Numbered from the stretch's first letter, positions 5,586 through 21,419 are shown. The stretch is DNA of 58,346 nt from Nitrospirota bacterium (GCA_038067655.1 JBBTNS010000018.1:1-58346); one strand, 5' to 3'. Translations and numbers: made by a program. Notes: generated by a model not told the origin, from the sequence alone.

Positions 5586-5724
5586 AAGAGACTATTCCAT
5601 ACGCAAAGACGTATTATTAAAGGGTGAATCGACAAGTGTAATCCAGATAAAACGACCTGTCAACAATAATGACCGAATGCTTTTTCTGATGTTTTGACCT
5701 TCATCCCCAAACCTTGTATTATTA

Positions 5725-5883
5725 GGGCATGGAGACAAATAACCTATCCAGTCGAGCTGCCAATTCATCCCTGTTTACTGTGTTGCTCGTCGCTTACATA
5801 CCAAAGGGTATGCTCACTCCTCGCGCCTTGCAAACAGGGCGACTCGTTTGCTCTTTGTGTATCGGTTATTTGTTTCCATGCCC
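5725..5883. repeat. 159-bp element with 20-bp terminal inverted repeats (MITE-like or structured RNA)
   Basis: GGGCATGGAGACAAATAACC (5725-5744) pairs with GGTTATTTGTTTCCATGCCC (5864-5883) at 19/20 positions. Internal hairpin CATACC-AAAG-GGTATG. TTA is present on both flanks. Confidence 0.5.
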
Positions 5884-5893
5884 TTAGCCCAAA

Positions 5894-6916
5894 ATGTTAC
5901 GCCTGCTTGATCGCTATATCTTCAAAGAGATTCTTGCTCCCTTTCTGATCGGGATTCTGATCCTCACATTCTTAATCCTGCTCCAACAACTGCTCACACT
6001 GACAGAGTGGGTGGTGGACAAAGGGGTCAGCCTTCTGACCGTCGCTGACATTTTTATAAAGCTGCTCCCCTCTTTCTTCCTTTTAACCACTCCCATGGCG
6101 GCGGCCTTTGCGGCGATCCTCGCGTTTCATCGGCTGTCCTCCGATCGCGAACTCATTGCCCTAAACGCCGCCGGGATCGGTTTTTCCAGAATGCTGATGC
6201 CCGTGATCTGTTTTGCGACTTTTGCAGCCTTGTTGACATTCCTGATGGGAACACTTTCCTCCACATGGGGAACCACCTCACTAAAATCGGCTGGAAAGAA
6301 AATGCTAAAAGAGCGAGTGGGTGTCGGATTAGATGCCGGACGATTTACCGAAATCTTTCCGGGACTGATGATCTACGCCGAGTCCATGCCGGAACCTTCG
6401 AAAATAGAGCAGGTTTTTATTTACGATGGAAGATCGGCCGAACATCCACAAATTATCGCGGCTAAAACTGGCCAATTGATTAATGAGAAAGAGGCGATTG
6501 GTCTGGCACTTCAAAACGGAGCGATTCACCTGCATAAACCCTTGGTGGATCAAACGCTTTCTTTTGATTCATACGTTATAAAAATGCGTGTCCCAGTTCC
6601 TTCTTCTTCTGTCCCGTCTGAAAATAAAGCGCGTCAACAAATGGCACTGCATAAGCAATATGCGTTCGCCGTTGCCGCATTTCTTCTTTGTTTGATGGGC
6701 GCGGCATTGGGCGGCATGGCCGGAAACGGCGGACGGTTCGGCCCGATTGTTGCCGGCATTGGGTTGATCTTGCTTTATTATTCTCTGCAAAATGTCGGAA
6801 CCTATTTCTTCCCTGCAGGCAGTCAGTTTCCAGGAATGGCGGCTTGGATTCCCAACCTGGTTTTAACACCGATTACATTTTTTTTATTATTTCATAGAAA
6901 CGGGAAACGCGTTTAA
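5894..6916 (+). CDS. lptF: LPS export ABC permease LptF (YjgP/YjgQ family)
   Basis: N-terminus MLRLLDRYIFKEILAPF, a multi-pass membrane protein, followed 1 nt later by its paralogue lptG. Confidence 0.8.
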   Translation: MLRLLDRYIFKEILAPFLIGILILTFLILLQQLLTLTEWVVDKGVSLLTVADIFIKLLPSFFLLTTPMAAAFAAILAFHRLSSDRELIALNAAGIGFSRMLMPVICFATFAALLTFLMGTLSSTWGTTSLKSAGKKMLKERVGVGLDAGRFTEIFPGLMIYAESMPEPSKIEQVFIYDGRSAEHPQIIAAKTGQLINEKEAIGLALQNGAIHLHKPLVDQTLSFDSYVIKMRVPVPSSSVPSENKARQQMALHKQYAFAVAAFLLCLMGAALGGMAGNGGRFGPIVAGIGLILLYYSLQNVGTYFFPAGSQFPGMAAWIPNLVLTPITFFLLFHRNGKRV

Positions 6917-6917
6917 G

Positions 6918-8021
6918 ATGGCCTTATTATCCCGATATCTCTTGTCTGAATATTTAAAATGGCTGGCGATCCTTCTGACGACGCTGGTTATGGTCTTTCT
7001 TACGATTGACTCCTTGGACAAGGTGCGTTGGTATATCAAATACAATCCGACTTTCTTATCCGTTCTGGAATATTTTATTTTGAAAGTGCCGAAAATTGTT
7101 TCAGACCTCATGCCCATTGCCCTTTTCTTGGCTTCTTTAGTCACGCTTTTGCTCCTTGCAAAGAATAATGAGATCGTTTCGATGATGAGCGCGGGAATCA
7201 GTATGGTTCGGATCACGATGCCGATTCTAATTGTAGGGGGGGTGGTCAGTGCGATTTTTTTCTTTCTAAATGGGGCATTTATTCCTGCAACTTACAAGCA
7301 AGCGAGGATTGTCCAGCTGGAGAAAATTGAAAATGGGGGGTCGGTGGGAGCAAGAGGGACTTTCGTACAAAATAAAATCTGGCTTCGTGTGAGCCGTCAA
7401 ACCTTGCTTTATGCACAATTGGTAGACACGAAAAAGAACGCGATGTTTGGCGTACATCTTTATTATTTGGGAAATCTCATCCCCATGGAGGCGGAGATTG
7501 AAGCAGCGTCACTTTCTCATGAGATCGGCGGGTGGATTTTGTCTAATGGCGTTCATATCCAATATCAACAGGACGGAACGGTTTCTAAAACGCCATTTGT
7601 GAGAAAAACGGTTCAAATTGAGAAAACACTCCTTGAGATTCAACGGCTGGAGATCAAGCCGGACGAGATGACATACGAGCAATTACGGTTGTACATTGAT
7701 CAACTGAAAAAGGACGGGCTGAATGCCAATCGGTATGAAGTCGGTCTGAATCGAAAATATGCGTTCCCATTTTCAAATTTTGTTTTGGCCATTTTGGGCA
7801 TTCCGATCGCTTTTAAATATATGAACCTGAAACAAGGGGGAATGGCGCGGCCGGTTCTCTTGGGTCTTGGCGTGGTCTTGCTTTACTGGCTTTCTTTCTC
7901 AATTACCTATTCGATGGGAAGACTGGAAACACTTTCTCCCTGGGTCGCGGGATTTGGGCCACACATTGTGTTTTTGGCTTTGGGAATCGTGTTGCTCATC
8001 AACCTGCACCACCACATTTAG
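6918..8021 (+). CDS. lptG: LPS export ABC permease LptG (YjgP/YjgQ family)
   Basis: N-terminus LLSRYLLSEYLKWL, paralogous to the upstream gene, with the typical periplasmic insert between TM3 and TM4. Confidence 0.8.
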   Translation: MALLSRYLLSEYLKWLAILLTTLVMVFLTIDSLDKVRWYIKYNPTFLSVLEYFILKVPKIVSDLMPIALFLASLVTLLLLAKNNEIVSMMSAGISMVRITMPILIVGGVVSAIFFFLNGAFIPATYKQARIVQLEKIENGGSVGARGTFVQNKIWLRVSRQTLLYAQLVDTKKNAMFGVHLYYLGNLIPMEAEIEAASLSHEIGGWILSNGVHIQYQQDGTVSKTPFVRKTVQIEKTLLEIQRLEIKPDEMTYEQLRLYIDQLKKDGLNANRYEVGLNRKYAFPFSNFVLAILGIPIAFKYMNLKQGGMARPVLLGLGVVLLYWLSFSITYSMGRLETLSPWVAGFGPHIVFLALGIVLLINLHHHI

Positions 8022-8641
8022 TGGCCCGGCCACTGCGAGAACGACTGCTCCGCAGTCTTTGTTCATCAACCTACATTGTCATATTGGATTGCAGGGGCAG
8101 ACGACCGGTACGCCATCTGTCGGGACAGCCGCCGCATCGCGCCATCTAAAATGTAACCATAGGGTATATCGTCGGGTCATGTAAAGGGTAGACTTTGTAT
8201 GTTGGTCAGTGTAGAGTTTTATCGTTTCAATGGCCAGTAGCAGTTATTGGGTCTGTTAATTTTCACAAAATAAAGGAGGATTGAAAATGTCAAAGCCAAT
8301 AGGAGGGGCTCTAGCACAATCAGAATTATGACCAATCAATGCTAATTGATAGGCAGACACCTAACAACCGGCGATTGAACGAAGACCCAACAATGAGTGG
8401 GCTGTCTAGTGTGGCGGCGCAAATCCCACCTAGAGATACGGTTACGATTTCCTCAGGTTCTTCTCGTGCAAATAATTTAATGGTGAAGCCTTCTTCTGGA
8501 TTACCAAGCATTGAACGTGGAGAAACCACATTGCACTCTGAAACAAGTTTTTCCCCAGAACAGTCATTTACTTCAAGAAATGGAAAATACACCCTTTCCT
8601 TTCAAAACGGGAGTCTTGGACTCTCCCGAAATGAGAGGAGC

Positions 8642-9934
8642 ATGCCACACATAAAAGGGTTATTGATCATTCTCTTTTTTTATCTAACTGGATGTGGGGG
8701 GGGTACGTTCCAAGTGCCCCTCCCAGAAGAAAACCCTAACAATACAGCCCCAGTCAAAATAGTGGATCGTTCAACTCTCGTATCTGGAGGAGCGGGTTCC
8801 TTTTTGGATCCGATAACCATCACGCATATCAAAGGTTTGGAATATCCTCATTATCCTTCGGTGGCAGCGGATGGGCAGACCGTTATTGTCGCTTGGGATG
8901 CTCGGCTAATAAAACCGGGGAGACCGGGTTTCTTTGTTCGCTCCATAGATGGGGGAAAAACCTTTTCCCCGCCAGTCAGCCTTTTTACAAAGAATACAGA
9001 TGATGTATCTTATGGTAACCCTTCAGTGGCGATAGATGGCCAGAATGTCTTTATGACATGGGCCTATTCGAGGCGGGTTTTTTTATTTTTTTACATTAAC
9101 CGATTATTTCTTTATCGTTCTACAGATGGAGGAGCCACATTTTCTGGACCCGTTAACATTGCGGGTGGTGTGAGGCGTGTCTTTAATACTGCTGTGGCTG
9201 TGGATGGAAAAACTGTTCTTGTGCTCTATACAGGCATAGATCAAAAGAATAATCGGATCCATAGTCCCTTTCTTACCCGCTCTACGAATGGGGGAAAAAG
9301 TTTTTCAAAACCGATCAACCTTTCACCGGATATATTTTCTCCTTACGATCTTTCAGTGGCTATTGATGGACAGACTGTTATTGTGAGTTGGACGCAGGAT
9401 AGGGATTCTCGAGAACCGAGGCGTCTTTGGTTTGCGCGTTCCACAGATGGAGGGGCAACCTTTTCACCACCGGTGAATCTCGCAAGTCATGAGGGATGGT
9501 TTCCTTCTGTAGGTATTTCTGGACAGACCGTTCTTATAACTGGGGACTTTCCTGGGAAAGAGAGAGGGGTATTGCTTGCCCGCTCCATAGATGGAGGAGC
9601 GACCTTTTCAACGCCGGTTGCCATATCAAAGAGAGCTAGCTCTTCTTGGGCACCTTCGATGGCAATAGATGGCCAAACGGTCATTGTAGCATGGGGAGAG
9701 AGAGATAGTTCGTATAAAGATGCGTCTGACATTTGGTTTGTTCTTTCCCATGATGGGGGGGTAATATTTTCCACACCTGTTAACCTCTCCAATATTGACC
9801 ACTCAAAGGCGAATGCTCCTGATGCTTCGAGTCCCTCCGTTGCGCTAGATGGCCAAACGGCTTTTGTGACATGGACAGGTTCCATGGGTAAAAAAGATGG
9901 TCTTTATCTTGCCCGTATCCCGCTTGGGAAGTGA
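8642..9934 (+). CDS. BNR/Asp-box repeat (sialidase-like beta-propeller) lipoprotein
   Basis: Textbook lipoprotein signal MPHIKGLLIILFFYLTGC. About seven Asp-box repeats (SIDGGKTFS, STDGGATFS x2, STNGGKSFS, SIDGGATFS, SHDGGVIFS). The frame stays open upstream to 8339, so the start is uncertain. Confidence 0.7.
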   Translation: MPHIKGLLIILFFYLTGCGGGTFQVPLPEENPNNTAPVKIVDRSTLVSGGAGSFLDPITITHIKGLEYPHYPSVAADGQTVIVAWDARLIKPGRPGFFVRSIDGGKTFSPPVSLFTKNTDDVSYGNPSVAIDGQNVFMTWAYSRRVFLFFYINRLFLYRSTDGGATFSGPVNIAGGVRRVFNTAVAVDGKTVLVLYTGIDQKNNRIHSPFLTRSTNGGKSFSKPINLSPDIFSPYDLSVAIDGQTVIVSWTQDRDSREPRRLWFARSTDGGATFSPPVNLASHEGWFPSVGISGQTVLITGDFPGKERGVLLARSIDGGATFSTPVAISKRASSSWAPSMAIDGQTVIVAWGERDSSYKDASDIWFVLSHDGGVIFSTPVNLSNIDHSKANAPDASSPSVALDGQTAFVTWTGSMGKKDGLYLARIPLGK

Positions 9935-10047
9935 ACGGATTTTCTGGTTTGACTTCCTCCTCCTACAACTAAACGTAGGGTCACCCATTAACAGTTGATG
10001 TCAAGAGGCATTGTGATCGCTGTGACACCATCTATCGGGACAGACGA

Positions 10048-11514
10048 TTACCTTACAATCGCGATGGTGCTGTTTTGGGGGTCGAGGCCGTCTACCGTTG
10101 CGCCAATTTGGGCCATCTCGACGATATATTGAATCACCTCTTGTGTCACTTCTTCTCCCGGAACCAAAAGAGGGATACCGGGCGGATAAACGGTGACAAT
10201 CTCGGCGCTTAACTTGCCCTTCGCCTCAACCAGCGGGATATATTGCAGCTCCCTGAAGAAGGCATCGCGCGGAGAGATATCAGTGGTCTTTCCAAACGGG
10301 GGAGTCCCGATTTGAGCCGAAAACAACGGCGTCTTCCCATGATACTCTTTTGAAATTTCACGTAAGGCATCCACCAGTCGCGCCAGATCGTCCTTCCGAT
10401 CCCCGATACTCACAATCACTAACACATTGATTGGATCGGCCATCTCCACCTGAATATGATATTGGGTATTCAAAATTTGCGAAACCTGATAGCCAGAAAG
10501 ACCCAAATCTTTTACGGTAACAGTCAGCTTGGTCACATCAAAGCCACCCATCTGCGCAAAAAGCGGATTGGAAACAACATTTTGACCAAAACAAAAAATG
10601 CCGGGAATCCGATTTATTTTCGCCCGCGCATCTTCGGCCAGACGAATGGTTCTGTCCAGCAATGTATGTCCCTCGGTCGCCATCTGCATCCGCGCTAAGT
10701 CGAGCGAGGCCATCAAAATATACGAAGGGCTGGTACTTTGCACCAGCTTCAACACCGCAGCCAATGCCGTCATGTCAATTCGGCTTCCTTTTGCATGGAG
10801 CATCGAAGCTTGCGTCATCCCGCCAATAATCTTATGCGTGCTTTGCACGGCCAGATCGGCCCCGGCCTGCATGGCCGAAGGAGGAAGGTTAGGATGAAAA
10901 CTTAAATGCGGGCCATGCGCCTCATCCACCAAAACCGTTAGCCCTTTCTCATGGGCATACGCAATAATTCGCTTAGTATCGGCACAGATGCCGTAATAAT
11001 TGGGCGTGGTCAGCAAAAGGGTCTTCGCCGAGGGATTTGCGTTAATGGCCTTCACCGTTTCATCATAAGTGACGTTTAAGGTCATCTTCAGATTTTCGTC
11101 TACGGAGGGAAGGTAAAAAATTGGCTTTGCCCCGGAAAAGATGAGTCCAGCTAAGACCGACTTATGGGCATTTCGGGCAACCAATACCGAATCGTTTGGG
11201 CTGCACATGGTTAAAACCATCGCATGGTTGCCGCCGGTCGTTCCATTCAACAGAAAAAAGGAGCGATCGGCACCATAAGCCAAAGCGGCCAGCCGCTGGG
11301 CCTCTTTGATCACGCCCTTTGGCTCTTGCAAAGAGTCCACCTCATCTAAGACAGTGAGGTCAATTGAAAATATTTTCGGGCCGACAAATTTGCGAAAACG
11401 GGTTGAGATGCCCTTCCCGCTTTTGTGGCCGGGGGTATGGAAGGAGACCTTTCGGCTTTCGGCCAAGGCCACCATCGCATCAAACAGAGGCGTCTTAAAT
11501 TGCTCTTCGTTCAA
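10048..11514 (-). CDS. PLP-dependent Orn/Lys/Arg decarboxylase family enzyme (likely arginine decarboxylase of the polyamine operon)
   Basis: Family motifs (HTPGHK, STHKIIGGMTQASMLH with the PLP lysine). Lies in an operon with speE and speD. Confidence 0.8.
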   Translation of the reverse strand: MNEEQFKTPLFDAMVALAESRKVSFHTPGHKSGKGISTRFRKFVGPKIFSIDLTVLDEVDSLQEPKGVIKEAQRLAALAYGADRSFFLLNGTTGGNHAMVLTMCSPNDSVLVARNAHKSVLAGLIFSGAKPIFYLPSVDENLKMTLNVTYDETVKAINANPSAKTLLLTTPNYYGICADTKRIIAYAHEKGLTVLVDEAHGPHLSFHPNLPPSAMQAGADLAVQSTHKIIGGMTQASMLHAKGSRIDMTALAAVLKLVQSTSPSYILMASLDLARMQMATEGHTLLDRTIRLAEDARAKINRIPGIFCFGQNVVSNPLFAQMGGFDVTKLTVTVKDLGLSGYQVSQILNTQYHIQVEMADPINVLVIVSIGDRKDDLARLVDALREISKEYHGKTPLFSAQIGTPPFGKTTDISPRDAFFRELQYIPLVEAKGKLSAEIVTVYPPGIPLLVPGEEVTQEVIQYIVEMAQIGATVDGLDPQNSTIAIVR

Positions 11515-11519
11515 CGGGT

Positions 11520-12440
11520 TTAGTTATGAGTAAATAGAGGATGGTTATCCTCAATAATTCTGTCCTGTTTTTCCATCTGGAGCCGAATATGTTTTGGCAG
11601 AAGGAACTGGCCCCGGTGTATGTCCCCGTCATAGTAGAGCAACTCTCCGGTGATTCGCTCTGCAATCTTACGATTGACCTCTTTTGGATCAATCTCTCTT
11701 GGGTCAAACTGTTTTGAGGCGAGCGCGAATCCCCAGGGCAATCCAAACGACGGAATACAGGCCTGATAGCCGGTTACAATCGGAAAGGCTTGTCGAAGTG
11801 TTTGATAAACCGATGTAAAATTCAATAGATTGTTTGCGGAAGTGGTTCCGGCCTGGAGCGAAATGATCCCATCGGGGCTTAACCGATCAGTCACCAGCGT
11901 ATAAAACTCTTTTGTGTAAAGAAGATAGGCTGGGCCTTCTTCCACCGGCTCGGAAATATCAATGATGATAATATCGTATGTCTCGTTTGTCTCCTCCAGA
12001 TAACGCCGCGCGTCCTGATACCGAAGTATGGTGCGCGGATCGTCAAACGCACCCGCATGCCATGCAGGCAGATGGTCTTTGCAAGAGACGACCACTTCCT
12101 CGTCAATATCAACCATGACGGCCTTTTTAACGGAAGGGTAACGGAGAATCTCGCGTAAAGTCGCTCCCTCGCCTCCGCCCACCACAAAAACACTTTGCGG
12201 ATTCGGATGGGTCAACATTGCCGGATGAACGAGTGCCTCGTGGTAGATAAACTCGTCAGCCTCGGAAGACTGCATCTTGCCATCTAAGACCAGGCAACGT
12301 CCGTAACTAAGCGTGTCAATGATTTCCAGTCGTTGAAAAGCGGTCTGCCGGTCGTAGACAATCTTATCAATGCCATGCAGATGCCCCTCGACGGGGGAGA
12401 GGGAATCAAGAAACCATTTGGAGCTCTTCGTCTCGCTCAT
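11520..12440 (-). CDS. speE: Spermidine synthase (polyamine aminopropyltransferase)
   Basis: VFVVGGGEGATLREILRY, MVDIDEEVV, YDIIIIDISEP. Start set at MSETKSS (12440) rather than the longer ORF start at 12485. Confidence 0.85.
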   Translation of the reverse strand: MSETKSSKWFLDSLSPVEGHLHGIDKIVYDRQTAFQRLEIIDTLSYGRCLVLDGKMQSSEADEFIYHEALVHPAMLTHPNPQSVFVVGGGEGATLREILRYPSVKKAVMVDIDEEVVVSCKDHLPAWHAGAFDDPRTILRYQDARRYLEETNETYDIIIIDISEPVEEGPAYLLYTKEFYTLVTDRLSPDGIISLQAGTTSANNLLNFTSVYQTLRQAFPIVTGYQACIPSFGLPWGFALASKQFDPREIDPKEVNRKIAERITGELLYYDGDIHRGQFLLPKHIRLQMEKQDRIIEDNHPLFTHN

Positions 12441-12837
12441 GACAGGCTTCTCCTTTTTCTGGTTTGTGGGGCAATGATATGCCATCCAACCGCAATGTTC
12501 CTCTTTTCACTTCGATCACAGAGGGATTTTTGGACTCAAACTTTTTTGCTAAATAATCAGCGGCAACAGACGGCTGTAATGTTTCCCCGCAAGTGAAGAT
12601 ATCCACTGCGGCATAGCCATATTCCGGCCAGGTATGAATGGAAAGATGAGATTCCGCAATAATGACAACACCACTGACACCATGCGGATTAAATTGATGA
12701 AAATGTGCGCTTAAAACGGTTGCGCGGGCCTCTTTGGCCGCGTCCACCATGAACTTCTCTATCTTTTTGTAATCATCTAACAATGTTGTGTTGCATTCTC
12801 TCAGCTCGACCAACAAGTGCGTCCCTAAAGCTTGCAC
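12406..12837 (-). CDS. speD: S-adenosylmethionine decarboxylase proenzyme (small SpeH/SpeD type)
   Basis: Self-processing site motif ESHLSIHTWPE; GTG start; overlaps the speE start. Confidence 0.85.
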   Translation of the reverse strand: MQALGTHLLVELRECNTTLLDDYKKIEKFMVDAAKEARATVLSAHFHQFNPHGVSGVVIIAESHLSIHTWPEYGYAAVDIFTCGETLQPSVAADYLAKKFESKNPSVIEVKRGTLRLDGISLPHKPEKGEACHERDEELQMVS

Positions 12838-12920
12838 TCTATTTACCCCCTTTCGTTCGATCCGGTGAAACCGGAGTCATTTATTTTCAAAAACGAAATC
12901 CACAGCAAAAATTCGCTAGG

Positions 12921-12953
12921 TTGTTATAATACATTTTGTTTATACTTTGTCAA
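12921..12953 (-). promoter_or_regulatory. Possible sigma70-type promoter of the speD-speE-decarboxylase operon
   Basis: On the minus strand, TTGACA is followed after 17-19 nt by ATTATAAC (best -10 is TATAAC). Lies about 80 nt upstream of the speD GTG. The -10 is weak and there is no experimental support. Confidence 0.35.
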
Positions 12954-12970
12954 GAAAAATTTTTAAAAAT

Positions 12971-13230
12971 TGTCAGTGACAAATAGAGATGGAAGGTTTT
13001 GAGGTACCCTTTTTGAGAAAGGAGGGAAAGTCGGGCGGGACAATTGTGTTCATTTTGAGGGGCGTGTTTTACTGATTCCGAGTCATCCGTATCGTTGTCA
13101 TGACGTGAAAGCGACGGTTCGTGTGTCGCTTTATGGGGATGGGCGAGTGGCTCTTTTTCATGGGCCTCGGAAATGGGTGGAATATGATGAGAAAGGAGGG
13201 GCTGTTTTACAGTGGGAAAAGGCTGCGTAA
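12971..13230 (+). mobile_element. Internally deleted ISNCY-like IS remnant (5' end joined directly to the last 67 transposase codons)
   Basis: 12971-13026 repeats the 5' end seen at 20626-20705. 13027-13230 translates to ...GRDNCVHFEGRVLLIPSHPYRCHDVKATVRVSLYGDGRVALFHGPRKWVEYDEKG..., which resembles ISNCY-family transposase C-termini as I recall them. Confidence 0.6.
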
Positions 13231-13280
13231 ATCCGCTTCGCAGATGAAGTAAATCATATTGGGGATGCCTAACCAGTTAT

Positions 13281-15801
13281 TCACTCCCTCGCCACCACCG
13301 TGTCGTACAACCCGTAATGGGTCAGACCCGGATGGCTATCTATGCCGGCGTAACGGAGCGACGCGTCTTCGTACCGCCGGAACGCGAACACGGCCTGATT
13401 CATCTGCTCGGTGTTGAACACCTTCAGCCGCACAAGCAGGTGGAAGTCCTTCACCGTCAGGCCTGTGACAACGAGGAACAGCTCCGGTTCGAGTTTGGTG
13501 ATGACATCCTGCAACGTGTTTTCGCGGAAGTCGGTCAGGTACATGAACGCGGGAATCCGCGTCGCAAACTTGATCAGCTTCTCTTGAACAAGCTTGCGCT
13601 TTGACTTGTACTCCTTCTCCTCGTCGGTGAGCTGTTTCTTCTGCTTCTCCGTCAGCTCTTTGTCTTTGGCCTTGTTCTTGAGTTCCCTGACCTTCTCGCT
13701 CTTGTTGATGATGGTCTCGATGATGTGGTCGCCCAGCGAGCGCCAGCCCTCGATGCGCTCAACGGCGGCCATCGCTTCGGGGTTGTCGAGGATGCGCCGG
13801 AGCGTGTCGTTGTCCACGTTCACGAGCAGCGCGCTCTCCCACTTGCGAGCCAGCAGCGTGGCCGAGGTGCCCGCCATCGCGATGTCGAGAATGCCGCCTG
13901 CATCAATCTGCGTCATGTTGGCACCGTCGAAGGCCAGCACGGGCAGGAACGACACGAGGTCCTTGACGGCGTTCTCCGGGTTCGGCTCGTTAGGCGACAG
14001 GCCGATTGCGTACTCGGAGAGCTGCCGCAGCGCGCGCGTGGGCGCGAAGTCGAACACGAAGCAGACGGGCTTGAATATCTCCTCTTCGTTCGGGTTGTCA
14101 CCGTTTGGGTTCTTGATGGACCAGGGTGACTGCACGCGGAACGCGGCCTGAAAGTAGGTCTCCGGCGACTTGAGATTGCGCAGCATCAGGATGGATGACC
14201 ACTGCGGCACCGTGACGCCGGTGGTGAGCTTGCCGCAGGAGAGCGTGATGGTCTTGGTCGTAAACCCGCTGCCGATGGCCGTGCGCACGGGTGGCAACGC
14301 ATCCAGTCCGATGCCCGCAGATGCGCCAGCAGCGACGACCACCTCATAGTCGCGCCAGAAGGTGTTGTGCTTCTCGGCCAACAGGTTCGCCATCGCGTGG
14401 CAGGCCGCGACGTTGGGCAGAAACCAGAACGAGTGCTGCAAGTAGGGCAGCAGGCGAACGTCCGAGTGGCCGGGTGCCAGTCTTGAGATACTCCACCGCC
14501 TTGGGCGCATACCCGCCGCGGATGATGTCCAGCCACTTCTGCACATCGCTCTTGTGCTTGAACTGCGCCTTGAGGCCCGTGCCCGATGCCTCGAAAAACG
14601 CGTTGAGATCGAACTCGTCGAACTCCCCCGCGCTCGCTATGGCAACCAGTTCGTCCGGCATCTGGTAGGTCAGCAGGCGCATCTGCGGCAGCGCGCCGTA
14701 GGGGTTCCACTGGCCAAGGTTCTGGGCGGCGAACGCTTCCTTGGCGCGCTGTTCGTCCGTGTACGTCCAGTTGAATATCTGCTCCTCGATGAACTCGCCC
14801 GTGGCCAGAGCCTTGAACGGGGTGCCCGAGAGGTAGAGATACGCCTTGGTCGTGATCGGTAGGAACTGATCCGAGAGCTCCTTCAGGTCTTCATTTACTC
14901 TCTCCAGATTCTTGGCGTATTCGATCTTTACCGCCTCTTCCGCGACTGCATCTTCCTCACCTTCGAACAATTCCTTGGCGGTCTCCCGCCACGCGCCGAA
15001 ATGGTATTCGTCGAACACCACGAGGTCCCACTTCACTTTGTGCAGCCATTCGTTCTTGGGCTTGATGTTCCCCGCCGCATCGCGGCCGAGCAGGTCTTGG
15101 AAGGAGCCGAAATAGACGACCGGCTTCTTGCTGTTGATCTTCGTCGGGTCTCCGTCGGAGTGGCGCGACAGGTACTGCCAGCCGTCGAAGTCCACATGAC
15201 TTTCAATATCCGTCTGCCACGCGTCCTCCACGGCGGGCTTGAAGGTCACCACGAGCACGCGTTTGGCGCCGAGCTTCCGGGCCAACTGATACGCGGTGAA
15301 GGTCTTTCCGAAGCGCATTTTCGCATTCCAGAGAAAGCGCGGGACCGCGTGCATGTCTTCCTTCCAGATGGAGTGGAAGTAGGCGTGGGTCTTGTTCACG
15401 GCGTCGGCTTGCTCGCGGCGCATCACGAACGTCTCGTGATGGGTGCCGGTGAATCGCTGGCCGGTGCGGAGTTCAGTGAGCACGGTTTGCACGTCCGTGA
15501 CCGAGCAGCGCATCCATTCCAGTTCGACGTTCTCGATCCCTTTCCTGACAAGTGCAGCGCGTACGTCGTGGTCACTGAAAATGCTGCCGTTGTCGCGCTC
15601 GGCGGATGCGTCGAGTTCAATGCGAAAGCTCTTGATCGCGGCGGTCTTGAGCTGCTCGGCGACACGCTGCTTCACGTCGCGTGTGGTCTGGCCCACCTTG
15701 AGGAGGCCCGCGTGCGCTTCGTCGGAAATGGAGTAGGCATAAATGCGCGGCCGGGCTTCCGGCTTGGGCGCAAGGATTTCTTCGATGGTGGGCTTGCTCA
15801 T
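13281..15801 (-). pseudogene. T5orf172/GIY-YIG-like nuclease domain fused to a DExH SF2 helicase (about 840 aa), broken by one frameshift near 14475-14485
   Basis: N-terminus IYAYSI...GLLKVGQT; helicase motifs AKMRFGKT, VVFDEYH, LSGTP, GKLTTGVTVPQW, QAAFRVQS. ORFs 14344..15801 and 13281..14546 are consecutive parts in different frames (…AVEYLK / PGHSDVRLLPYLQHSFWF…). Confidence 0.75.
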
Positions 15802-16805
15802 GACGACCTCTCGATGACTTCCCAGTGGCCGGCCTTGTCGGAGCCGATCCGTTTGAGATGGCCCTGTTCACGTAGTGTTTTGAGATGGCGTTCCACGGTT
15901 CGAGTGGTCTTGTTCAGCAGGGTTGCCAACTCCTTGGCTGACAAATGCGGCTGCTGCGCCAGGAATCCCAGAATTTGGCCACTTACACCGACATTTACAC
16001 CGACATCTTCAGGGGTGGTTTCCACGCTCTCCGTCGCCACATCAATGTACTTGTACAGCGAATTGGCTATGGCATCGAGCATAAAACCGATGAACGGACG
16101 GCAATCCAGCGCGCCGGTATGCGAATCCTGCAACGCCTTGTAGTACAGCGCCTGATTGTGGTGAACCAGGGTTTCAACCGGCATCCAGGCAAACAGCGGG
16201 TTCCATCGGGAAAGAATCAGCGTCTGCCACAGCCGCCCGATTCGGCCATTGCCGTCGCGGAAAGGATGGATGTATTCCAGCATGTAGTGGACGGCGGAAC
16301 TCTTGATGAGCGGGTGCGCTTCGGCGGTCTTTCCCCAATCCAGAAGCTGCTCGACCAGGGCGGGGACATCTCCCGCCGGAGAGCCACGGTGCATCACCGT
16401 ACCATCGCCGCTCACGACGGCCACACCGACTGTGCGGAACCGGCCCGACTCTCCGATGAGTGCGTCGGTCAGATGCGCGTGGGCTTTCAGAAGGTCGCTC
16501 ACCGACCAGGGCTCATAGCGGGTCATTTCGTTGTAGGCATGCCACGCGTTCTGCACCTCTTTGATGTCCTTGGGCGGCCCCCAAACCGGTTTGCCGTTGA
16601 TGACATCGGTGACTTGACCCAAAGTGAGCCGGTTTCCTTCAATGGCCGTGGAGGCGTGAATCGAGAGAATGCGGTTGAGTTTGCGCAGATGCAACAGATC
16701 GCCCGACTGCTCCTCGCTGATCTTGACGCGTTCCAGCAGGGTGTGAATGGCGCCGATCTTTTCGTGCCACAGGGGGTCGTCCGTATAAAACTTCTCAAGC
16801 GGCAT
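15798..16805 (-). CDS. Fic/DOC-family protein (class II, with N-terminal inhibitory helix) and C-terminal winged-HTH
   Basis: Catalytic motif HPFRDGNGRIGR; inhibitory motif STAIEGN ((S/T)xxxE(G/N)); C-terminal HTH (SAKELATLLNKTTRTVERHLKTL). Its stop overlaps the helicase ATG (ATGA). Confidence 0.85.
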   Translation of the reverse strand: MPLEKFYTDDPLWHEKIGAIHTLLERVKISEEQSGDLLHLRKLNRILSIHASTAIEGNRLTLGQVTDVINGKPVWGPPKDIKEVQNAWHAYNEMTRYEPWSVSDLLKAHAHLTDALIGESGRFRTVGVAVVSGDGTVMHRGSPAGDVPALVEQLLDWGKTAEAHPLIKSSAVHYMLEYIHPFRDGNGRIGRLWQTLILSRWNPLFAWMPVETLVHHNQALYYKALQDSHTGALDCRPFIGFMLDAIANSLYKYIDVATESVETTPEDVGVNVGVSGQILGFLAQQPHLSAKELATLLNKTTRTVERHLKTLREQGHLKRIGSDKAGHWEVIERSS

Positions 16806-16858
16806 CACGTGCGGACCTCCGGCTTGGGCGCAAGGATTTCTTCGATGGTCTTACTCAT
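16805..16858 (-). other. 17-codon ORF (MSKTIEEILAPKPEVRT) duplicating the N-terminus of the helicase gene
   Basis: 32-bp identity between 16818-16849 and 15758-15789. Has its own ATG and a GAAGGA Shine-Dalgarno-like sequence. Its stop overlaps the Fic ATG (TGATG). Confidence 0.6.
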
Positions 16859-16955
16859 TGCGCTATCCTTCGAGTTCAGTGTGATAAATCTATTACTCAT
16901 TGAGGCTCTTGAAAAGTCGTCGAAACTGGCTCCCCCGCCCCCTAACCCCCCGCCT

Positions 16956-18137
16956 TTAGCGGAACGCCGCTTTTGACGCGTCCGCTGGAAGGCATTGTTG
17001 GGCATCTTTTAGTTTTGTTGCTAACTCGCGGCCTATTTTTTCTGCAAGCAACACAGGAACTGCATTCCCGATTTGGCGCATAGCTTCACTCCATGCACCT
17101 TTAATAACAAAATCATCGGGAAATGTTTGTATCCGTTTGGCCTCAAATGTAGTGAGATATCGAACACTCCCATCGTTGAAGCGGATCATGTTTTCCCCGC
17201 CAGGCACGCCATGCCCACCGGCTTTAATTGTTTTTGACGGCCAATCAAAATCACTGCCTGTATGCCCAGGATATGTGCGTGCACCCTCTCGAAATATGTG
17301 GTCGATTATTTTGTGATCAGACTCCGGGTTGGGTGTATCGGATAAAGCATCCCGTACTGTTTTCCACGGCAGTAACTCGGGTTCAAACATCCCATACTTA
17401 TCTTTAAGCCGAGATATCTTTTCTTTCAGGATCACATCTAAAACAGGCCGTGCTGACTTAGCCACTTTGTGGCGGTCCCAGTATTCGCCCGTTACGTACA
17501 TATCCCAAAGAAGCCTGTCTTCCGAGTGTGTTTCTACGGGAAATGACCAAGACATTTTGAGGTCGGATCGTGCGCCCACGATGACAACCCTCTCCCGGGT
17601 TTGAGGCACCCCAAAATCTGCGGCATTTAATAGCTTGTACTGAACGTTATATTTTTTTCCAATGTAGGAAGATTTTTCAATAGTACGAAGCTTGTCAAGA
17701 TAACTTCCCCAATCTGCATTTTTACCTGGCGCAAAATCCGGATAACTTAGCCTAAGAATGATGTATTCAAAATAGTCAGAAAAAGTCTCACGCAATAGGC
17801 CTTTTACATTTTCAAAAACAAATGCTTTAGGTGTAAGCCGTTCAATTGCGCGTATAGCGTAGGGGAACATGTCTCGGCTATCTTGATGCGCCCTATGCTT
17901 GCCGCCCAATGAAAATGGCTGGCATGGCGGGCCACCCGCAACGATGTCAACTTGCCCAAGGGTGTCTAAATCGAAGTCTTTTATGTCGCCAAAGAAAATT
18001 GGCACCGAGTCAAAATTTTCAGAGAGTGAGGCACAAGCATGCCGATTAAACTCAACGAAGGCTGCATGCTCAAAACCCGCTAACTCCAGGCCTTTAGCCA
18101 ACCCGCCAGCACCTGAAAATATTTCAAGGGTTTTCAT
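16956..18137 (-). CDS. DNA (cytosine-5)-methyltransferase
   Basis: Motifs I FSGAGG, IV GGPPCQPFS, VI ENVKGL, VIII QTRERVVIVG and X GNAVPV. Starts 3 nt after the upstream Eco29kI-family endonuclease gene ends. Confidence 0.9.
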   Translation of the reverse strand: MKTLEIFSGAGGLAKGLELAGFEHAAFVEFNRHACASLSENFDSVPIFFGDIKDFDLDTLGQVDIVAGGPPCQPFSLGGKHRAHQDSRDMFPYAIRAIERLTPKAFVFENVKGLLRETFSDYFEYIILRLSYPDFAPGKNADWGSYLDKLRTIEKSSYIGKKYNVQYKLLNAADFGVPQTRERVVIVGARSDLKMSWSFPVETHSEDRLLWDMYVTGEYWDRHKVAKSARPVLDVILKEKISRLKDKYGMFEPELLPWKTVRDALSDTPNPESDHKIIDHIFREGARTYPGHTGSDFDWPSKTIKAGGHGVPGGENMIRFNDGSVRYLTTFEAKRIQTFPDDFVIKGAWSEAMRQIGNAVPVLLAEKIGRELATKLKDAQQCLPADASKAAFR

Positions 18138-18139
18138 CG

Positions 18140-18781
18140 CTACGACCCCAAGCGCTTTAGATGAAGCCGTATTTTAGAAACGATGGTGCTTTTTTCTGCA
18201 TGCGCTCCATTGCACTTATTCGCCCAAGCTCGGCCTTCGTGGATAACGTCCCAATCTGACTTGGCTTGCTCGTATCGACCGCTCCCGGGGTCGTGATTGC
18301 CAAAGCCATCAACGGCAGTATTCCAAAGCGGTATATTCATCTTAATGAGAGCCGCCTCGATTGTGCTAATCATGTCCGAGCCTACGTCTTCGAAAATGAC
18401 GAAGCGGCACATGAAATCTTCGAGCAGCAGGCCAGCGCCAAGCGTAATGCCCCTGCTGTGCTCTCGAAGGCGGCCAATCAGTTCGCGAGATTGATTTAGT
18501 GCGTTGTCCGACGAGCGAGCTTGACGCCATCCTTTTGGAACAGCCTTGCCCACATAGATGGGGTAACCGTAGGAAAGGCGGTTTAGCTCCGCATATCGTT
18601 TATATAGTGGGTTGCGTCCCGTGTAGTACAGAGCGTACACCCCTGTTCCAAAGAATGATTCCGGCGGTGGAAGTGTGTGAACGGGGGTGCCGTTAAAGAA
18701 TCTGACTGCATCTTTGACCAATTCGTCAAAGGCATCGTTTTTATACACATGCTTACTTCGGTCAAACGCTTGCGGCTTCAT
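18140..18781 (-). CDS. Eco29kI-family (GIY-YIG type) type II restriction endonuclease
   Basis: 213 aa with GVYALYY...YPIYVGKAVPKGWR, matching my recollection of Eco29kI. Paired with a C5 methyltransferase. Specificity (CCGCGG for Eco29kI) is not verifiable here. Confidence 0.7.
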   Translation of the reverse strand: MKPQAFDRSKHVYKNDAFDELVKDAVRFFNGTPVHTLPPPESFFGTGVYALYYTGRNPLYKRYAELNRLSYGYPIYVGKAVPKGWRQARSSDNALNQSRELIGRLREHSRGITLGAGLLLEDFMCRFVIFEDVGSDMISTIEAALIKMNIPLWNTAVDGFGNHDPGSGRYEQAKSDWDVIHEGRAWANKCNGAHAEKSTIVSKIRLHLKRLGS

Positions 18782-18835
18782 ACGGCAGTATTTCCTATCT
18801 CAAATTGGCAGGTATATTTTCTCATAATCTGGCAG

Positions 18836-18961
18836 TCACGTCAAAGTAGACGCCCAACGCGACGTTGGCGCCAGCCAATCCCAGAAGGCCGGGTAGAAGT
18901 CCAGACCGTAGTGCAGGTTCTTCGCGGACATGAACACATTGGTGTCCAGCAGATAGCTCAT
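18836..18961 (-). pseudogene. DUF4411 (PIN-like) protein, truncated after about 30 genuine residues
   Basis: MSYLLDTNVFMSAKNLHYGLDFYPAFWDWL is followed by unrelated residues and a stop. Its ATG overlaps the ImmA stop (ATGA). Full-length family members are about 160 aa. Confidence 0.6.
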
Positions 18962-19853
18962 ACCGTCACCCCCAGCTCGCGGGCCGCTTCGTAGAAGGTG
19001 GCCGTCTTGCGCATGCCCAACATGCGAAAGGCATCCGGGAACGAGGTCAAGCCCTCCAGCGTGCTGACCTTGAACTCGCGCGCCAGCCGCTGTATTTCGT
19101 CCGGAATTGGCGCGTTGCGCTGGTGCGCTGCTCGCAGATCCTCCATGGGCATCAGCAGTTCCGCTGCCACCTGGTTGCACCAGCGTTCTGTTTGCTGCTC
19201 GGGCAGCTCGCCCGCCTGCGTATCCGACACGCCCGTTGCAGCCACAAATGGGCGAGTTCATGCGCCAGCGTGAACATCTGGGCAGCCTTGCTGTCGGCAC
19301 CGTTCAAGAATACCAGCGGCGCAAGGCCGTCCGCCAGTGCGAAGCCGCGAAATTCGTCCACGTCCAGCTTGCGGTGGCTGTTGCTGCCCACCACGGAGCT
19401 GACCATTACCATCACCTCGGCGTCTTCGGCCTTGGCGATTAACTGGCGCAACGCGTCCGTCCATGTGGGCAACTGGCGACGCGCTTCGGTGGACAGGGCT
19501 AGCGTCTCGCGCAGGCTGGCACTGCCGACGAACGCCAAGGCAGGTAAGCCGTGCATGCGGGCATGGTCGCGGTACCAGTCCTGTCGCTGCTGGGTTCAGC
19601 GAGGGCCTCGTCGCGCAGGGTACGGAAGTCTGGCACCGGCAACGCCAGCTCTGGCGGTTGGGGCAGGAAGAAGTAGCCGAAGGCCGTGCGCGTGAGGCGC
19701 GCGAAACATTCCAGTTGCTTGAGCGTGGGCTGGGCCTCTCCGCTGAGCCACAAAGGCCACTTGGCGAAGCGAGCCGCTAGGTCGCCGTCGTTCAAGTGTG
19801 CGCGTTGCGCTGCCCAGCGAAGCACGGGGATGGAAGCTGCTACGGTTGTTCAT
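18958..19853 (-). pseudogene. HTH + ImmA/IrrE (DUF955) zinc metallopeptidase, with at least two internal frameshifts
   Basis: Three consecutive frame segments: LRWAAQRAHLNDGDL...PVPDFRTLRDEAL; QRQDWYRDHARMHGLPALAFVG...FTLAHELAHLWL (HExxH); and AATGVSDTQAGELPEQQTERWCNQVAAELLMP. Frame switches lie near 19600 and 19243. The SD-preceded ATG at 19853 is in yet another frame. Confidence 0.7.
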
Positions 19854-19916
19854 ACCACCCCCTTGGGCAATGTTGCCAGCGCCGTTTGCATCATCCCTGC
19901 GGCCAGCTCGCCCACC

Positions 19917-20528
19917 TACCGGTGGGTAGGCCCTCCTCGGCGTAAAGATATCGTGCTTCGCAAGGTGGGCGAAGAGCGAGCCCTTCGCGCTGAAGGCCGA
20001 TGACTGGGTGAGGGTATCGTAAAGGAAATCACGCCGCTGAAACCGGCCCTTGCCCAGATAGCCCCACTCGGCAAAGGTGATCGGCTGGCCGTCGTGGGTG
20101 CGCATCGTCAGCGCGTTGCCGTGCACGAGGTTCTGCGATAGGACCAAGGATGCCGCGCGATAGAGTTCGGCCGACTCATCCACGATTAGGTATTCCGCAA
20201 AAATCTCCAGCATCTTCGCGCGGCACTCGGCGATGTTGTCCTCCAAGAGCTCAATCCCGTAGGTGCACATTAGAGCGAGAAGGGCGTAGTGTCGCCTTTC
20301 AAAGTCGGACTTCCCGAACTTGAGTTCAACGGCCGCGAGCTTCCGTTGCAGGATGCGAACGAGGAAGTTCCCGCTCCCGCACGCCGGCTCCAGGAAGCGA
20401 GAGTCAATGCGTTCGGTCTCGTCTTTCACAAGATCGAGCATCGCTTCAACCATCCACGCCGGGGTGAAGACCTCCCCGTGGTCGGCGACGCGCTGTTTAG
20501 ACTTGACGTAGTTCATAGGCCGATGCAT
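19917..20528 (-). CDS. N6-adenine DNA methyltransferase-like protein (SAM-binding motif I only); 3' end aberrant
   Basis: HGEVFTPAWMVEAMLDL and FLEPACGSGNFLV resemble Eco57I/N6-MTase N-terminal regions. I see no NPPY-type motif. The ORF has no in-frame stop until 19596, well inside the ImmA pseudogene, and the tail is an Arg/Gly/Ala-rich out-of-frame read. Confidence 0.45.
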
Positions 20529-20625
20529 TTCAGGCGACGCTTCCTTGTTGTCACCGCAGGTTAACCAATTATTGTCTGGACGGTATCAAATTTTGAACGT
20601 GTAATCAATCAAGCCAGCGAGAGGA

Positions 20626-21035
20626 TGTCAGTGACAAATAGAGATGTCCGGTTTCAGAACACATAATCTGGAAGGTTTTGAGGCACCCTTTTTGAGAAAG
20701 GAGGGTGCTGATGAGACCAACAGAACCAAGACAGGAGATTCGGAAGATGAGATTTGAAGAAGCATATGAAGATTGGAAACAAAATCGTTTAACCCAAGAG
20801 GAAGCCGGAAGGATTCTTAGGGTCAGTGATCGGACATTTCGACGTTATTTGATTGGGTATGAAGCCGAGGGATTGGATGGCCTGTTGGATAAGCGTTTAT
20901 CCATAGGATTCGCCCCGGCGTGCGCCGGTCGATGAAGTGATCGCGCTAACGACAATGTATCGGTCGCATCATTTGGGCTGGAACGTAAAACATTTCTATG
21001 GTTTTTACAAGAGAACAGACTTTTGGAAAGTACCT
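20626..21035 (+). mobile_element. ISNCY-like IS remnant: 5' end plus the first ~100 transposase codons (frameshifted, 3'-truncated)
   Basis: The RBS AAGGAGG and ATG at 20711 give MRPTEPRQEIRKMRFEEAYEDWKQNRLTQEEAGRILRVSDRTFRRYLIGYEAEGLDGLLDKRLS. After a frameshift near 20915 it reads RAPVDEVIALTTMYRSHHLGWNVKHFYGFYKR. Homology is lost where gtrA ends (21039). Confidence 0.6.
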
Positions 21036-21038
21036 GAC

Positions 21039-21419
21039 TCATCTAAAAGTGATGTATTTATGCCCAAGGTAATTGGTGATCGCCACGCCCCCTTTGGCCA
21101 GCGCCGAACCCCACAAGTACCACCATCCCAATATTTCGACACTAACAACAATAATCAGGCTATTTAAAACTAAACCGATTGTAAGGATGGAAAAAAAAGA
21201 AAACAATTCTCCGGCACTAATCGCACCCCGACTTTGAAAGGTGATATATTTTTGTAAAAGGTATCCGATCATCCCAACGGATAGAAAAGCCACCGTTGCG
21301 GAGAGGAGAATGCTCAGGTGAATGTATTCCACGAGAGCATACATAAAACTCATATCTAACAGCGCACAAAATCCGCCCACAAATCCAAATTTAAAGAGCT
21401 GTTTTAATTCCCGTCCCAT
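21039..21419 (-). CDS. GtrA-family membrane protein
   Basis: 126 aa with four TM helices and FKFGFVGGFCALLDMSFMYALV; lies downstream of a GT2 polyprenol-phosphate glycosyltransferase. Confidence 0.75.
   Translation of the reverse strand: MGRELKQLFKFGFVGGFCALLDMSFMYALVEYIHLSILLSATVAFLSVGMIGYLLQKYITFQSRGAISAGELFSFFSILTIGLVLNSLIIVVSVEILGWWYLWGSALAKGGVAITNYLGHKYITFR

Follow-up and report, generated by a model that had tools for sequence, protein, structure and literature searches.

MmeI homologues that have no nuclease and stand between genes for the helicase YeeB and the GIY-YIG protein YeeC were described by Morgan et al. in 2009, together with the proposal of a Type I-like restriction-modification (R-M) system (PMC2731913), and a design comprising a methyltransferase (MTase), a superfamily 2 (SF2) helicase and a GIY-YIG domain was pointed out for relatives of the Type ISP enzymes by Sisakova et al. 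(PMC3553950). Type ISP enzymes themselves have the architecture nuclease, helicase, gamma-class MTase and target-recognition domain (TRD), in which the MTase/TRD portion diversifies and the motor is conserved (PMC4666363). The general design of the gene family considered here was noted in 2009 and 2013. The family is examined here through an island at positions 13281 to 20528 of a 58,346-nucleotide (nt) stretch of DNA from a Nitrospirota bacterium (GCA_038067655.1, JBBTNS010000018.1:1-58346), the whole of which is referred to as the window. A small MTase-like gene (20528 side) and a gene encoding a T5orf172-DExH helicase fusion (13281 side) form the two ends of this island, and both are frameshifted. 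The backbone that they represent is rather probably a degraded copy of a conserved three-gene operon that lacks its catalytic MTase gene.

This reading arises from the comparison of 117 loci, namely the best 80 of at least 593 matches of a genome scan, 35 from a scan of IMG/VR and two context look-ups. A small MTase-like protein (small M), an MTase with the Eco57I domain (Eco57I-M) and the T5orf172-helicase are encoded colinearly in 90 of the 117 loci, and, among those with more than 4.5 kb of sequence upstream of the helicase, the full set occurs in 70 of 72, the exceptions being L043 and L119. In the intact order, a small M of ~218 residues is followed by an Eco57I-M of ~525 residues and then by a T5orf172-helicase of ~845 residues, and annotated examples of all three genes are found on Sphingopyxis and Acuticoccus plasmids, on a Mycolicibacterium plasmid (43% identity) and in a Gemmatimonadetes prophage. 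Intact copies are carried by Sphingopyxis macrogoltabida NZ_CP012704 (about 7962-12738), Rhizobium phaseoli NZ_CP013575 and Deinococcus wulumuqiensis NZ_CP031164. In megablast searches of the island, the helicase region was the sole match in plasmids, with homologues at ~77% nucleotide identity on the Sphingopyxis and Acuticoccus plasmids, and complete Escherichia coli genomes gave no match. Since the first and last island genes flank Eco57I-M in the relatives, they are true partners, as the initial annotation had supposed, but were not neighbours. Its view that the two genes were once adjacent has to be abandoned, because in the relatives a third core gene, the Eco57I-family MTase with an NPPY motif, lies between them; of this gene, tblastn detected no trace in the window. 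The two backbone genes that the window retains are the following:

13281..15801, minus strand: fusion of T5orf172 (GIY-YIG superfamily) with an SF2 DExH helicase, pseudogene (Pfam; alignment with L001 and L002; repaired product).
19850..20528, minus strand: small MTase-like gene, pseudogene (N-terminal parts only of Pfam MmeI_Mtase and N6_Mtase; tblastn; nucleotide alignment with L009, L059 and L061; family conservation).

The helicase gene had been described as coding for an N-terminal T5orf172 module and a DExH helicase in a protein of about 840 residues, which is borne out by Pfam matches to T5orf172 (E 9.5e-7) and ResIII (E 2.4e-7) and by a repaired product of 843 residues. All the motifs quoted for both genes are present in the window, and those of the helicase (AKMRFGKT, DEYH, SGTP and QAAFRVQS) are intact. 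The reported frameshift could be traced to an 11-nt deletion at 14468/14467, as judged from the intact plasmid homologues L001 and L002, which is the only frame-breaking lesion of the gene and splits it into two open reading frames (ORFs), the remaining indels being multiples of three. Throughout the family, whose conservation figures derive from 86-111 homologues of the three proteins, the ~845-residue helicase protein starts with a T5orf172 domain, continues with an SF2 DExH ATPase and ends in a helical region, with a mean pairwise identity of 0.79 and conservation of GKT, DEYH, SGTP and QAAFRVQSP. Residues Y21, Y23, K35, G37, T39, R41, R46, E49, E95 and W96 of T5orf172 do not vary, even when a Bacteroidaceae clade of 57% identity is included, and the helicase motifs are likewise invariant across that clade and the clade of the window. 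T5orf172 belongs to the GIY-YIG superfamily and is the nuclease domain of Gp88/Odn in phage ICP1 (PMC8263062). The AlphaFold2 model of the helicase is poor (predicted local distance difference test score, pLDDT, 55), and only T5orf172 (residues 16-115) is confidently modelled, as a beta-beta-alpha-beta-alpha-beta-alpha unit. The gut Bacteroidaceae clade (P0121-P0240; matches to L110 10001-12487) comprises proteins of ~970 residues with T5orf172, MUG113 and ResIII, is 55-58% identical to the window clade and is very abundant, with single 90% clusters of 3710 and 2240 members.

The middle protein of the operon, Eco57I-M, contains the Pfam Eco57I domain and the motif FDV(L/I)IGNPPYQ, together with a conserved FLDPxTKSGVF and a Cys cluster. 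Its mean identity is 0.58 and drops to 0.30-0.50 over residues ~280-480, with GNPPYQ more than 90% conserved. This variable C-terminal region matches what is expected of the specificity subunit of an R-M system and is thus a candidate target-recognition (TRD-like) region.

Small M is a different kind of protein. The ORF at 19596-20528 on the minus strand matches Pfam MmeI_Mtase (E 6.8e-8) and N6_Mtase (E 1.5e-4) with N-terminal parts only, and its homology to relatives is confined to the first ~200 residues (tblastn to residues 1-200 of the L001 small MTase; window 20516->19917; 71.5% identity). It carries motif X (GEVFTP) and the S-adenosylmethionine (SAM) motif I (FLEPACGSGNF) without NPPY or DPPY. 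The initial annotation had found no such catalytic motif in the ~200 recognisable residues, and the observation extends to the entire family: NPPY/DPPY is present in 0 of 86 homologues, and GEVFTP and FLEPACGSGNF are invariant in them. The natural length of small M is ~218 residues (~214-225), the 86 homologues having ~208-218, and its mean pairwise identity is 0.68. The lack of a proper stop in the window ORF, which had also been remarked on, is due to a 2-nt deletion at 19917/19916, located 22 codons ahead of the natural stop at 19852-19850, and the natural C-terminus (VGELAAGMMQTALATLPKGVV, followed by that stop) is still legible in another frame. Moreover, hhalign relates small M to the N-terminus of Eco57I-M (Prob 96%, E 2e-9) in the region of motif X and motif I only; the extended alignment is unreliable, and 'FAEWGY' may either replace NPPY or represent a later motif. 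Because motif I is kept, NPPY is never present and the protein is related to the Eco57I-M N-terminus, small M is probably a SAM-binding, non-catalytic paralogue of Eco57I-M. Against the PDB, the small MTase gave marginal motif-I matches only, to N-terminal regions of Type I and BseCI MTases, and its AlphaFold2 model is poor as well (pLDDT 49.5); both models suffer from the shallowness of the usable alignments.

All island genes are on the minus strand, and the operon reads, in that direction, small M, ImmA/IrrE, DUF4411 stub, Eco29kI R-M, a copy of the helicase-5' repeat, Fic and T5orf172-helicase. The features between the two backbone genes are:

18958..19853, minus strand: ImmA/IrrE (helix-turn-helix, HTH, and M78 peptidase), pseudogene (Pfam Peptidase_M78 on two ORF fragments; colinear with the intact 383-residue genes of L009, L059 and L061).
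18868..18961, minus strand: DUF4411 stub, first ~31 codons (Pfam DUF4411 positions 1-29 of 159; blastn breakpoint; sequence).
16870..18867, minus strand: Eco29kI-type R-M cassette, apparently intact, with the restriction endonuclease (REase) at 18781-18140 and the C5 MTase at 18137-16956 (Pfam, PADLOC).
16812..16858, minus strand: duplicate of the helicase 5' end (ATGAGTAAGACCATCGAAGAAATCCTTGCGCCCAAGCCGGAGGTCCG), 47 nt, upstream of Fic (direct repeat D1, 38 nt at 95%).
15798..16808, minus strand: Fic and winged-HTH gene, an intact cassette upstream of the helicase (Pfam Fic E 7.7e-19; PADLOC SoFic; colinear with L021).

The origin of this arrangement can be followed through two groups of relatives. 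In L009, L059 and L061, an unbroken alignment with the window extends from small M through ImmA into the first DUF4411 codons (20548->19048 and 19066->18868), and the homology of DUF4411 to the relatives stops at 18868; the window ImmA bears a +1 nt insertion right behind its ATG, further frameshifts and a deletion of ~170-186 nt at 19048/19066. On the other side, L021, a metagenome-assembled genome from Nitrospirota, aligns continuously over 16869->13281 at 84.5% nucleotide identity, comprising 11 nt before the repeated helicase start, Fic and the helicase. The Fic gene, whose stop overlaps the helicase ATG, has the HPFRDGNGR motif and a PADLOC SoFic match (E 3.4e-44, positions 58-341 of 361) and is a predicted SoFic protein. 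A remnant of RhuM upstream of the window Fic was considered and rejected, as the homology with L021 begins just 11 nt ahead of the repeated ATG. Between the two alignable parts stands the Eco29kI cassette (18867-16870), where the 3' part of DUF4411 and the entire Eco57I-M gene would be; the Eco29kI site is CCGCGG. Pfam matches to RE_Eco29kI (E 4.5e-70, positions 2-163 of 164) and DNA_methylase (E 7e-63) and PADLOC matches to REase_II (2-210 of 214) and MTase_II (1-377 of 382) correspond to a full-length GIY-YIG REase and C5 MTase; the GC content of the cassette, 45-52%, is lower than that of the rest of the island, a counterpart exists in no related locus, and the plasmid and E. coli collections hold no close match. 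The simplest history would be that an ancestor with the order small M, ImmA, DUF4411, Eco57I-M, Fic and helicase had the stretch from DUF4411 codon ~31 to just ahead of the helicase-5' repeat replaced by the Eco29kI R-M cassette, with loss of the DUF4411 3' part and of Eco57I-M. The proposal that three modules had been inserted between the partner genes thus stands for the Eco29kI cassette, which is without counterpart, and not for ImmA/IrrE with DUF4411 or for Fic, which recur at operon junctions in relatives (L009, L059 and L061 for the former; L021 and L024 for the latter). Because Eco57I-M has been lost and small M (-2 nt), the helicase-nuclease (-11 nt) and ImmA are frameshifted, the window copy is a dead relic, that is, non-functional. 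The loss of a protective methylase together with an inactivated nuclease-motor would fit the toxicity logic of R-M systems.

Accessory genes tend to accumulate at both junctions between the genes of the operon. Among L006-L113, the small-M|Eco57I or the Eco57I|helicase junction is enlarged by over 300 nt in 20 of the 90 complete loci, and in this additional DNA Pfam identifies ImmA/IrrE with DUF4411, KilA-N, SLFN/AlbA_2 with HATPase_c_4, RhuM, Fic, DUF1016/YhcG and a weak SIR2-like match; in addition, MazF-like (L008) and PIN-like (L006) toxins were assigned by eye from ORF sequences without a Pfam check. ImmA/IrrE with DUF4411 occupies in L009, L059 and L061 the same junction as in the window, and in L021 and L024 Fic immediately precedes the helicase. 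Type I R-M operons have likewise been reported to harbour RhuM, Fic and DUF1016 among their core genes (PMC9881135). The extra DNA upstream of the helicase is bounded by the helicase-5' repeat (~38 nt) in L006, L008, L021, L024, L036, L058 and L079 as well as in the window, where its copies lie at 15752-15789 and 16812-16849; in L021, three copies (7851, 8951 and 10013) surround two cassettes, RhuM and Fic, and some cassette ORFs are joined in frame to the repeat. To judge from this arrangement, the repeat may be a site of recombination or capture. Duplications flanking the small-M|Eco57I junction were seen only in L008 and in L048, where the Eco57I N-terminus is duplicated, and they are therefore not general for that junction.

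The island stands out as a high-GC segment at ~13000-20700, with a GC content of 56-64% vs ~46% in the flanks. The first 56 nt of an insertion sequence (IS) remnant on its left (12971-13026) recur at 20626-20705, a pattern search giving 2 matches vs 0 expected, and two elements are accordingly recognised:

12971..13270, plus strand: internally deleted IS remnant (direct repeats D2 and D5; pattern search; sequence).
20626..21040, plus strand: second copy of the IS, truncated, with the same 5' end and an HTH transposase N-terminus (repeats; Pfam HTH_28, HTH_29 and HTH_23 on the ORF 20705-20935).

The two directly repeated, degraded copies of one IS bracket the whole island in a composite-transposon-like layout. 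An independent assembly, L123 (GCA_964365815.1, CAYIRR010000086.1), is 100% identical to window 8048-13514, a stretch of 5.5 kb, and thereby confirms the junction between the 3' end of the helicase and host DNA; its contig stops ~370 nt further on, within the helicase gene, and the frameshift is not covered.

The family to which the relic belongs is very widespread. At least 593 helicase loci are found among GTDB species-representative genomes, and more than 8000 database proteins match the helicase at E<=1e-30; an exhaustive search yielded 4205 clusters at 50% identity for E<=1e-3 and 1184 for E<=1e-30. Most clusters are of ~800-870 residues and align from residue ~15-30, hence including T5orf172, and a few are of 1077-1464 residues. 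The top 120 clusters (90% identity) are 88-92% identical to the window helicase and come from Gemmatimonadota, Chloroflexota, Methylomirabilis, Gammaproteobacteria and others, and the best 80 of the at least 593 genome loci show 83-92% identity and extend over Acidobacteriota, Planctomycetota, Actinomycetota, Bacillota, Nitrospirota, Verrucomicrobiota, Cyanobacteriota, Bacteroidota and more. In L005-L084, which cover more than 15 phyla, the 4.8-kb operon has 80-92% protein and 80-87% nucleotide identity. The limits of the shared unit are exactly the first start codon and the helicase stop, without a common flank, integrase or mobility gene, and the GC content of the helicase (0.42-0.63) correlates with that of its flanks (0.41-0.70; r = 0.69). 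The family is also present on phages and plasmids, and in several viral contigs (L086, L089, L098, L118 and other IMG/VR loci) the operon is located between the terminase large-subunit and portal genes. In L003, the operon is found within a prophage, adjoining HTH/M78 repressor-like genes and a HigB-like toxin. Plasmid copies have further neighbours of defence type: those of L001 (5031-7890, 12790-15430) are an AAA ATPase and S8 peptidase pair, HigBA and a DUF262 protein, and those of L122 (7765-12472) are TIR and HIT proteins and a helicase and DUF1156 pair.

More distant relatives (~33% identity) carry the genes in a fused form. A tblastn search of plasmids returned 81 records, and in Enterococcus, Lactococcus and Lactobacillus the helicase homologue is contained in a protein of 1446-1452 residues annotated as 'Eco57I ... 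domain-containing protein', whose gene is preceded by one for a 230-248-residue 'N-6 DNA methylase' (small MTase), as in the following examples:

NZ_LR135198, 4268-9347: fused form of Enterococcus faecium (L120), a small MTase-like gene and a ~1450-residue T5orf172-like/helicase/Eco57I-MTase protein.
pCV56A, 2824-7876: fused form of Lactococcus lactis (L121), a small MTase-like gene and a ~1450-residue T5orf172-like/helicase/Eco57I-MTase protein.

The E. faecium fused protein aligns to the split helicase from residue 5 and keeps the T5orf172-type YxY, KIGxTTRD, R..EQ and EW. The fused Enterococcus and Lactococcus proteins match the PADLOC model PDLC03626 (REase_MTase_IIG, 1359 positions) with E values of 1e-44 to 1e-48, a label that denotes a REBASE-derived catalogue class and not a characterised mechanism; the split proteins match separate parts of it, positions 180-800 being covered by the helicase (E 2e-31) and positions 1000-1359 by the Eco57I MTase (E 2e-37). 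The T5orf172 region of the window protein does not align to the N-terminal part of the model, the match beginning at protein residue 156. As the relatives combine a small MTase-like gene with a T5orf172-like/helicase/Eco57I-MTase protein and are matched by this type IIG model, the family is best read, on the strength of its domain content, as an ATP-dependent R-M system that resembles Type ISP and has a nuclease of GIY-YIG type. NCBIfam contains no family-level model and gave sub-threshold MADS2 and Alw26I matches only; a dedicated model was found in none of PADLOC, NCBIfam and Pfam, and the literature search returned no paper on this architecture and no experimental study of the family.

In intact copies, the Eco57I-type subunit would read a short, probably asymmetric site and methylate the host DNA there, possibly in complex with the small pseudo-MTase, and unmodified sites would license the helicase-nuclease to hydrolyse ATP, translocate on double-stranded DNA and cut by means of its GIY-YIG-type domain. 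In its logic the scheme would be that of Type ISP and Type I enzymes, spread over three polypeptides and with a different nuclease fold; we infer restriction activity, translocation and hemimethylation in it, as well as a role for small M. A broader proposal is that the operon represents a distinct, unnamed class of ATP-dependent R-M systems, a split and GIY-YIG-armed counterpart of Type ISP with a dead MTase paralogue as obligatory third subunit, which would in addition be a platform for cassette integration, partly via the ~38-nt site. Fic, RhuM, DUF1016, KilA-N, ImmA with DUF4411 and toxins of toxin-antitoxin type would have been captured at the gene junctions. This composite proposal is tentative and has somewhat less than an even chance of being correct in full.

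Several points weigh against the Type ISP-like reading itself. Experimental data were found for no family member, and in Bacillus subtilis neither restriction nor protection from phages was seen with dnmA-yeeB-yeeC, the nearest analogue described (PMC9973331). Searches of the PDB with the helicase, the Eco57I MTase, the fused protein and a 26-sequence profile detected no sequence similarity to solved structures, including those of the Type ISP enzymes LlaGI and LlaBIII; the AlphaFold models are poor (pLDDT 55 and 49.5, as given above), and Foldseek with the helicase model returned generic SF2/Snf2-like matches only, with TM-scores <=0.3. The role of small M as a partner, sensor or scaffold is a guess. 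Moreover, an identity of 80-92% between proteins of many phyla would be unusually slow evolution for a defence gene. Enrichment in defence islands, which the initial annotation had put forward for checking, is not supported: in a crude Pfam survey of 51 genome loci, the genes closest to the operon mostly had housekeeping functions. On the other hand, homologues of dnmA-yeeB-yeeC in Vibrio crassostreae have been reported to influence phage sensitivity (PMC9973331).

Other functions can be envisaged for the same set of genes. In a BREX-like exclusion without cutting, Eco57I-M would mark self DNA and the T5orf172-helicase would act as a motor or remodeller blocking the replication of unmarked DNA, with T5orf172 serving in DNA binding only. 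One study treats T5orf172 as a largely uncharacterised domain predicted to bind DNA and reports that phage genomes show no depletion of the DnmA motif (PMC9973331); both points would suit such a function, as would the Snf2-type remodellers among the top, low-confidence Foldseek matches. Nevertheless, this explanation is unlikely, since the Tyr, Arg and Glu of GIY-YIG catalytic type are invariant across clades, T5orf172 domains are active nucleases in ICP1 (PMC8263062) and the accessory proteins of BREX, DISARM or MANTIS are not present, PADLOC giving no matches to them. Membership of the helicase fusion in a phage replication or recombination module, to which the MTase-like neighbours would be incidental, is suggested by the copies that reside in prophages or on IMG/VR contigs; however, the near-obligate colinearity with two MTase-family genes (in 70 of 72 loci), the fusion with the MTase into one polypeptide in Firmicutes and the position of phage copies between terminase and portal rather than amid replication genes make it extremely improbable.

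The sharp limits of the shared unit, at the first start codon and at the helicase stop, without an integrase or flank in common, could also point to a mainly selfish, self-spreading module, an R-M addiction unit or homing-like element, in which the T5orf172-helicase would promote insertion or maintenance of the operon and defence would be a by-product. The 80-92% protein identity in more than 15 phyla, the frequent location of the operon amid housekeeping genes or between phage terminase and portal, and the duplication of helicase 5' ends at cassette borders are all in line with this view, and T5orf172 is typical of phage homing endonucleases (PMC8263062, PMC10448857). However, a hypervariable TRD under diversifying change suits defence specificity better, neither a target-site pattern nor an empty-site comparison was obtained, and selfishness and defence are compatible in R-M systems; mainly selfish spread is quite unlikely as the explanation.

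The family is very common, unnamed and distributed over more than 15 phyla. If it were an active R-M system, the ATP-dependent restriction enzymes would gain a helicase-driven class armed with GIY-YIG, bacteria would provide a case in which a dead MTase paralogue serves as partner subunit, and many orphan annotations of 'Eco57I-domain' proteins and short 'N-6 DNA methylase' proteins could be explained. The window itself mainly illustrates the decay of the operon, in which an R-M cassette replaces the protective MTase of another system and the nuclease-motor is inactivated.

Regarding known systems, classical Type IIG/IIL enzymes such as MmeI and Eco57I are not known to require ATP. They unite a PD-ExK nuclease, an MTase and a TRD in one polypeptide without a helicase, whereas the family has a helicase, a non-PD-ExK nuclease and split genes, and only the MTase domain family is common to both. 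The composition HsdR (PD-ExK nuclease with helicase), HsdM and HsdS of Type I is not found either, as HsdS and HsdR families gave no matches and MTase_I gave weak N-terminal matches only (E 1e-4 to 1e-3). Type III systems differ in that the ResIII match concerns the ATPase domain only, the nuclease of the family is N-terminal and of GIY-YIG type instead of a C-terminal PD-(D/E)xK domain, and its MTase is of the Eco57I family and not a beta-class Mod. The statement of the initial annotation that the locus fits no classical R-M type thus holds insofar as the defining features of Types I, III and ISP are not all present and PADLOC assigns no named system, but it has to be qualified by the match of the fused relatives to the type IIG model and by the earlier publication of the design.

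MANTIS (Gao_RL) resembles the family in having a separate MTase for an asymmetric site and an effector that combines a nuclease at its N-terminus with an SF2 ATPase (bioRxiv 10.64898/2026.09.23.753747); however, the family is devoid of the DUF499 AAA+ ATPase, DUF3870 and the PLD nuclease, to which PADLOC gave no matches. MANTIS/Gao_RL, BREX, DISARM, Hma and MADS were rejected as the identity of the system, with PADLOC returning generic MTase models only. By described domain content, dnmA(yeeA)-yeeB-yeeC is closer: its three clustered genes encode an N6-adenine MTase of MmeI/Eco57I type that has no nuclease of its own, a helicase of SF2 and a protein with T5orf172/GIY-YIG, and the co-occurrence of such genes is matched in the family by 90 of the 117 loci. 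In that cluster, T5orf172 is the C-terminal domain of the separate YeeC and the MTase is one MmeI-like protein, whereas in the family the helicase itself begins with T5orf172 and the MTase family is represented by two genes, one of catalytic Eco57I type and a short one without NPPY.

Type ISP, to whose members LlaGI and LlaBIII no sequence similarity was detected, differs from the family in further respects: the nuclease of the family is of T5orf172/GIY-YIG type instead of Mrr PD-(D/E)xK, with no Mrr match; the single polypeptide of Type ISP contrasts with the split genes of the window clade, in which the MTase gene is upstream of the helicase gene; and an extra small MTase-like gene without NPPY is always present, also beside the fused forms. 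The SF2 ATPase of Type ISP has its counterpart in the ResIII match with invariant GKT, DEYH, SGT and QxxFRxQ, although the window gene is frameshifted, and the gamma-class MTase and TRD would have theirs in the Eco57I domain, GNPPYQ and variable C-terminus of the relatives, although this gene is absent from the window. Moreover, the fused relatives would combine the same activities in the same order as Type ISP enzymes, with an N-terminal nuclease, an SF2 helicase-like ATPase, a gamma-class N6-adenine MTase with NPPY and a variable TRD.

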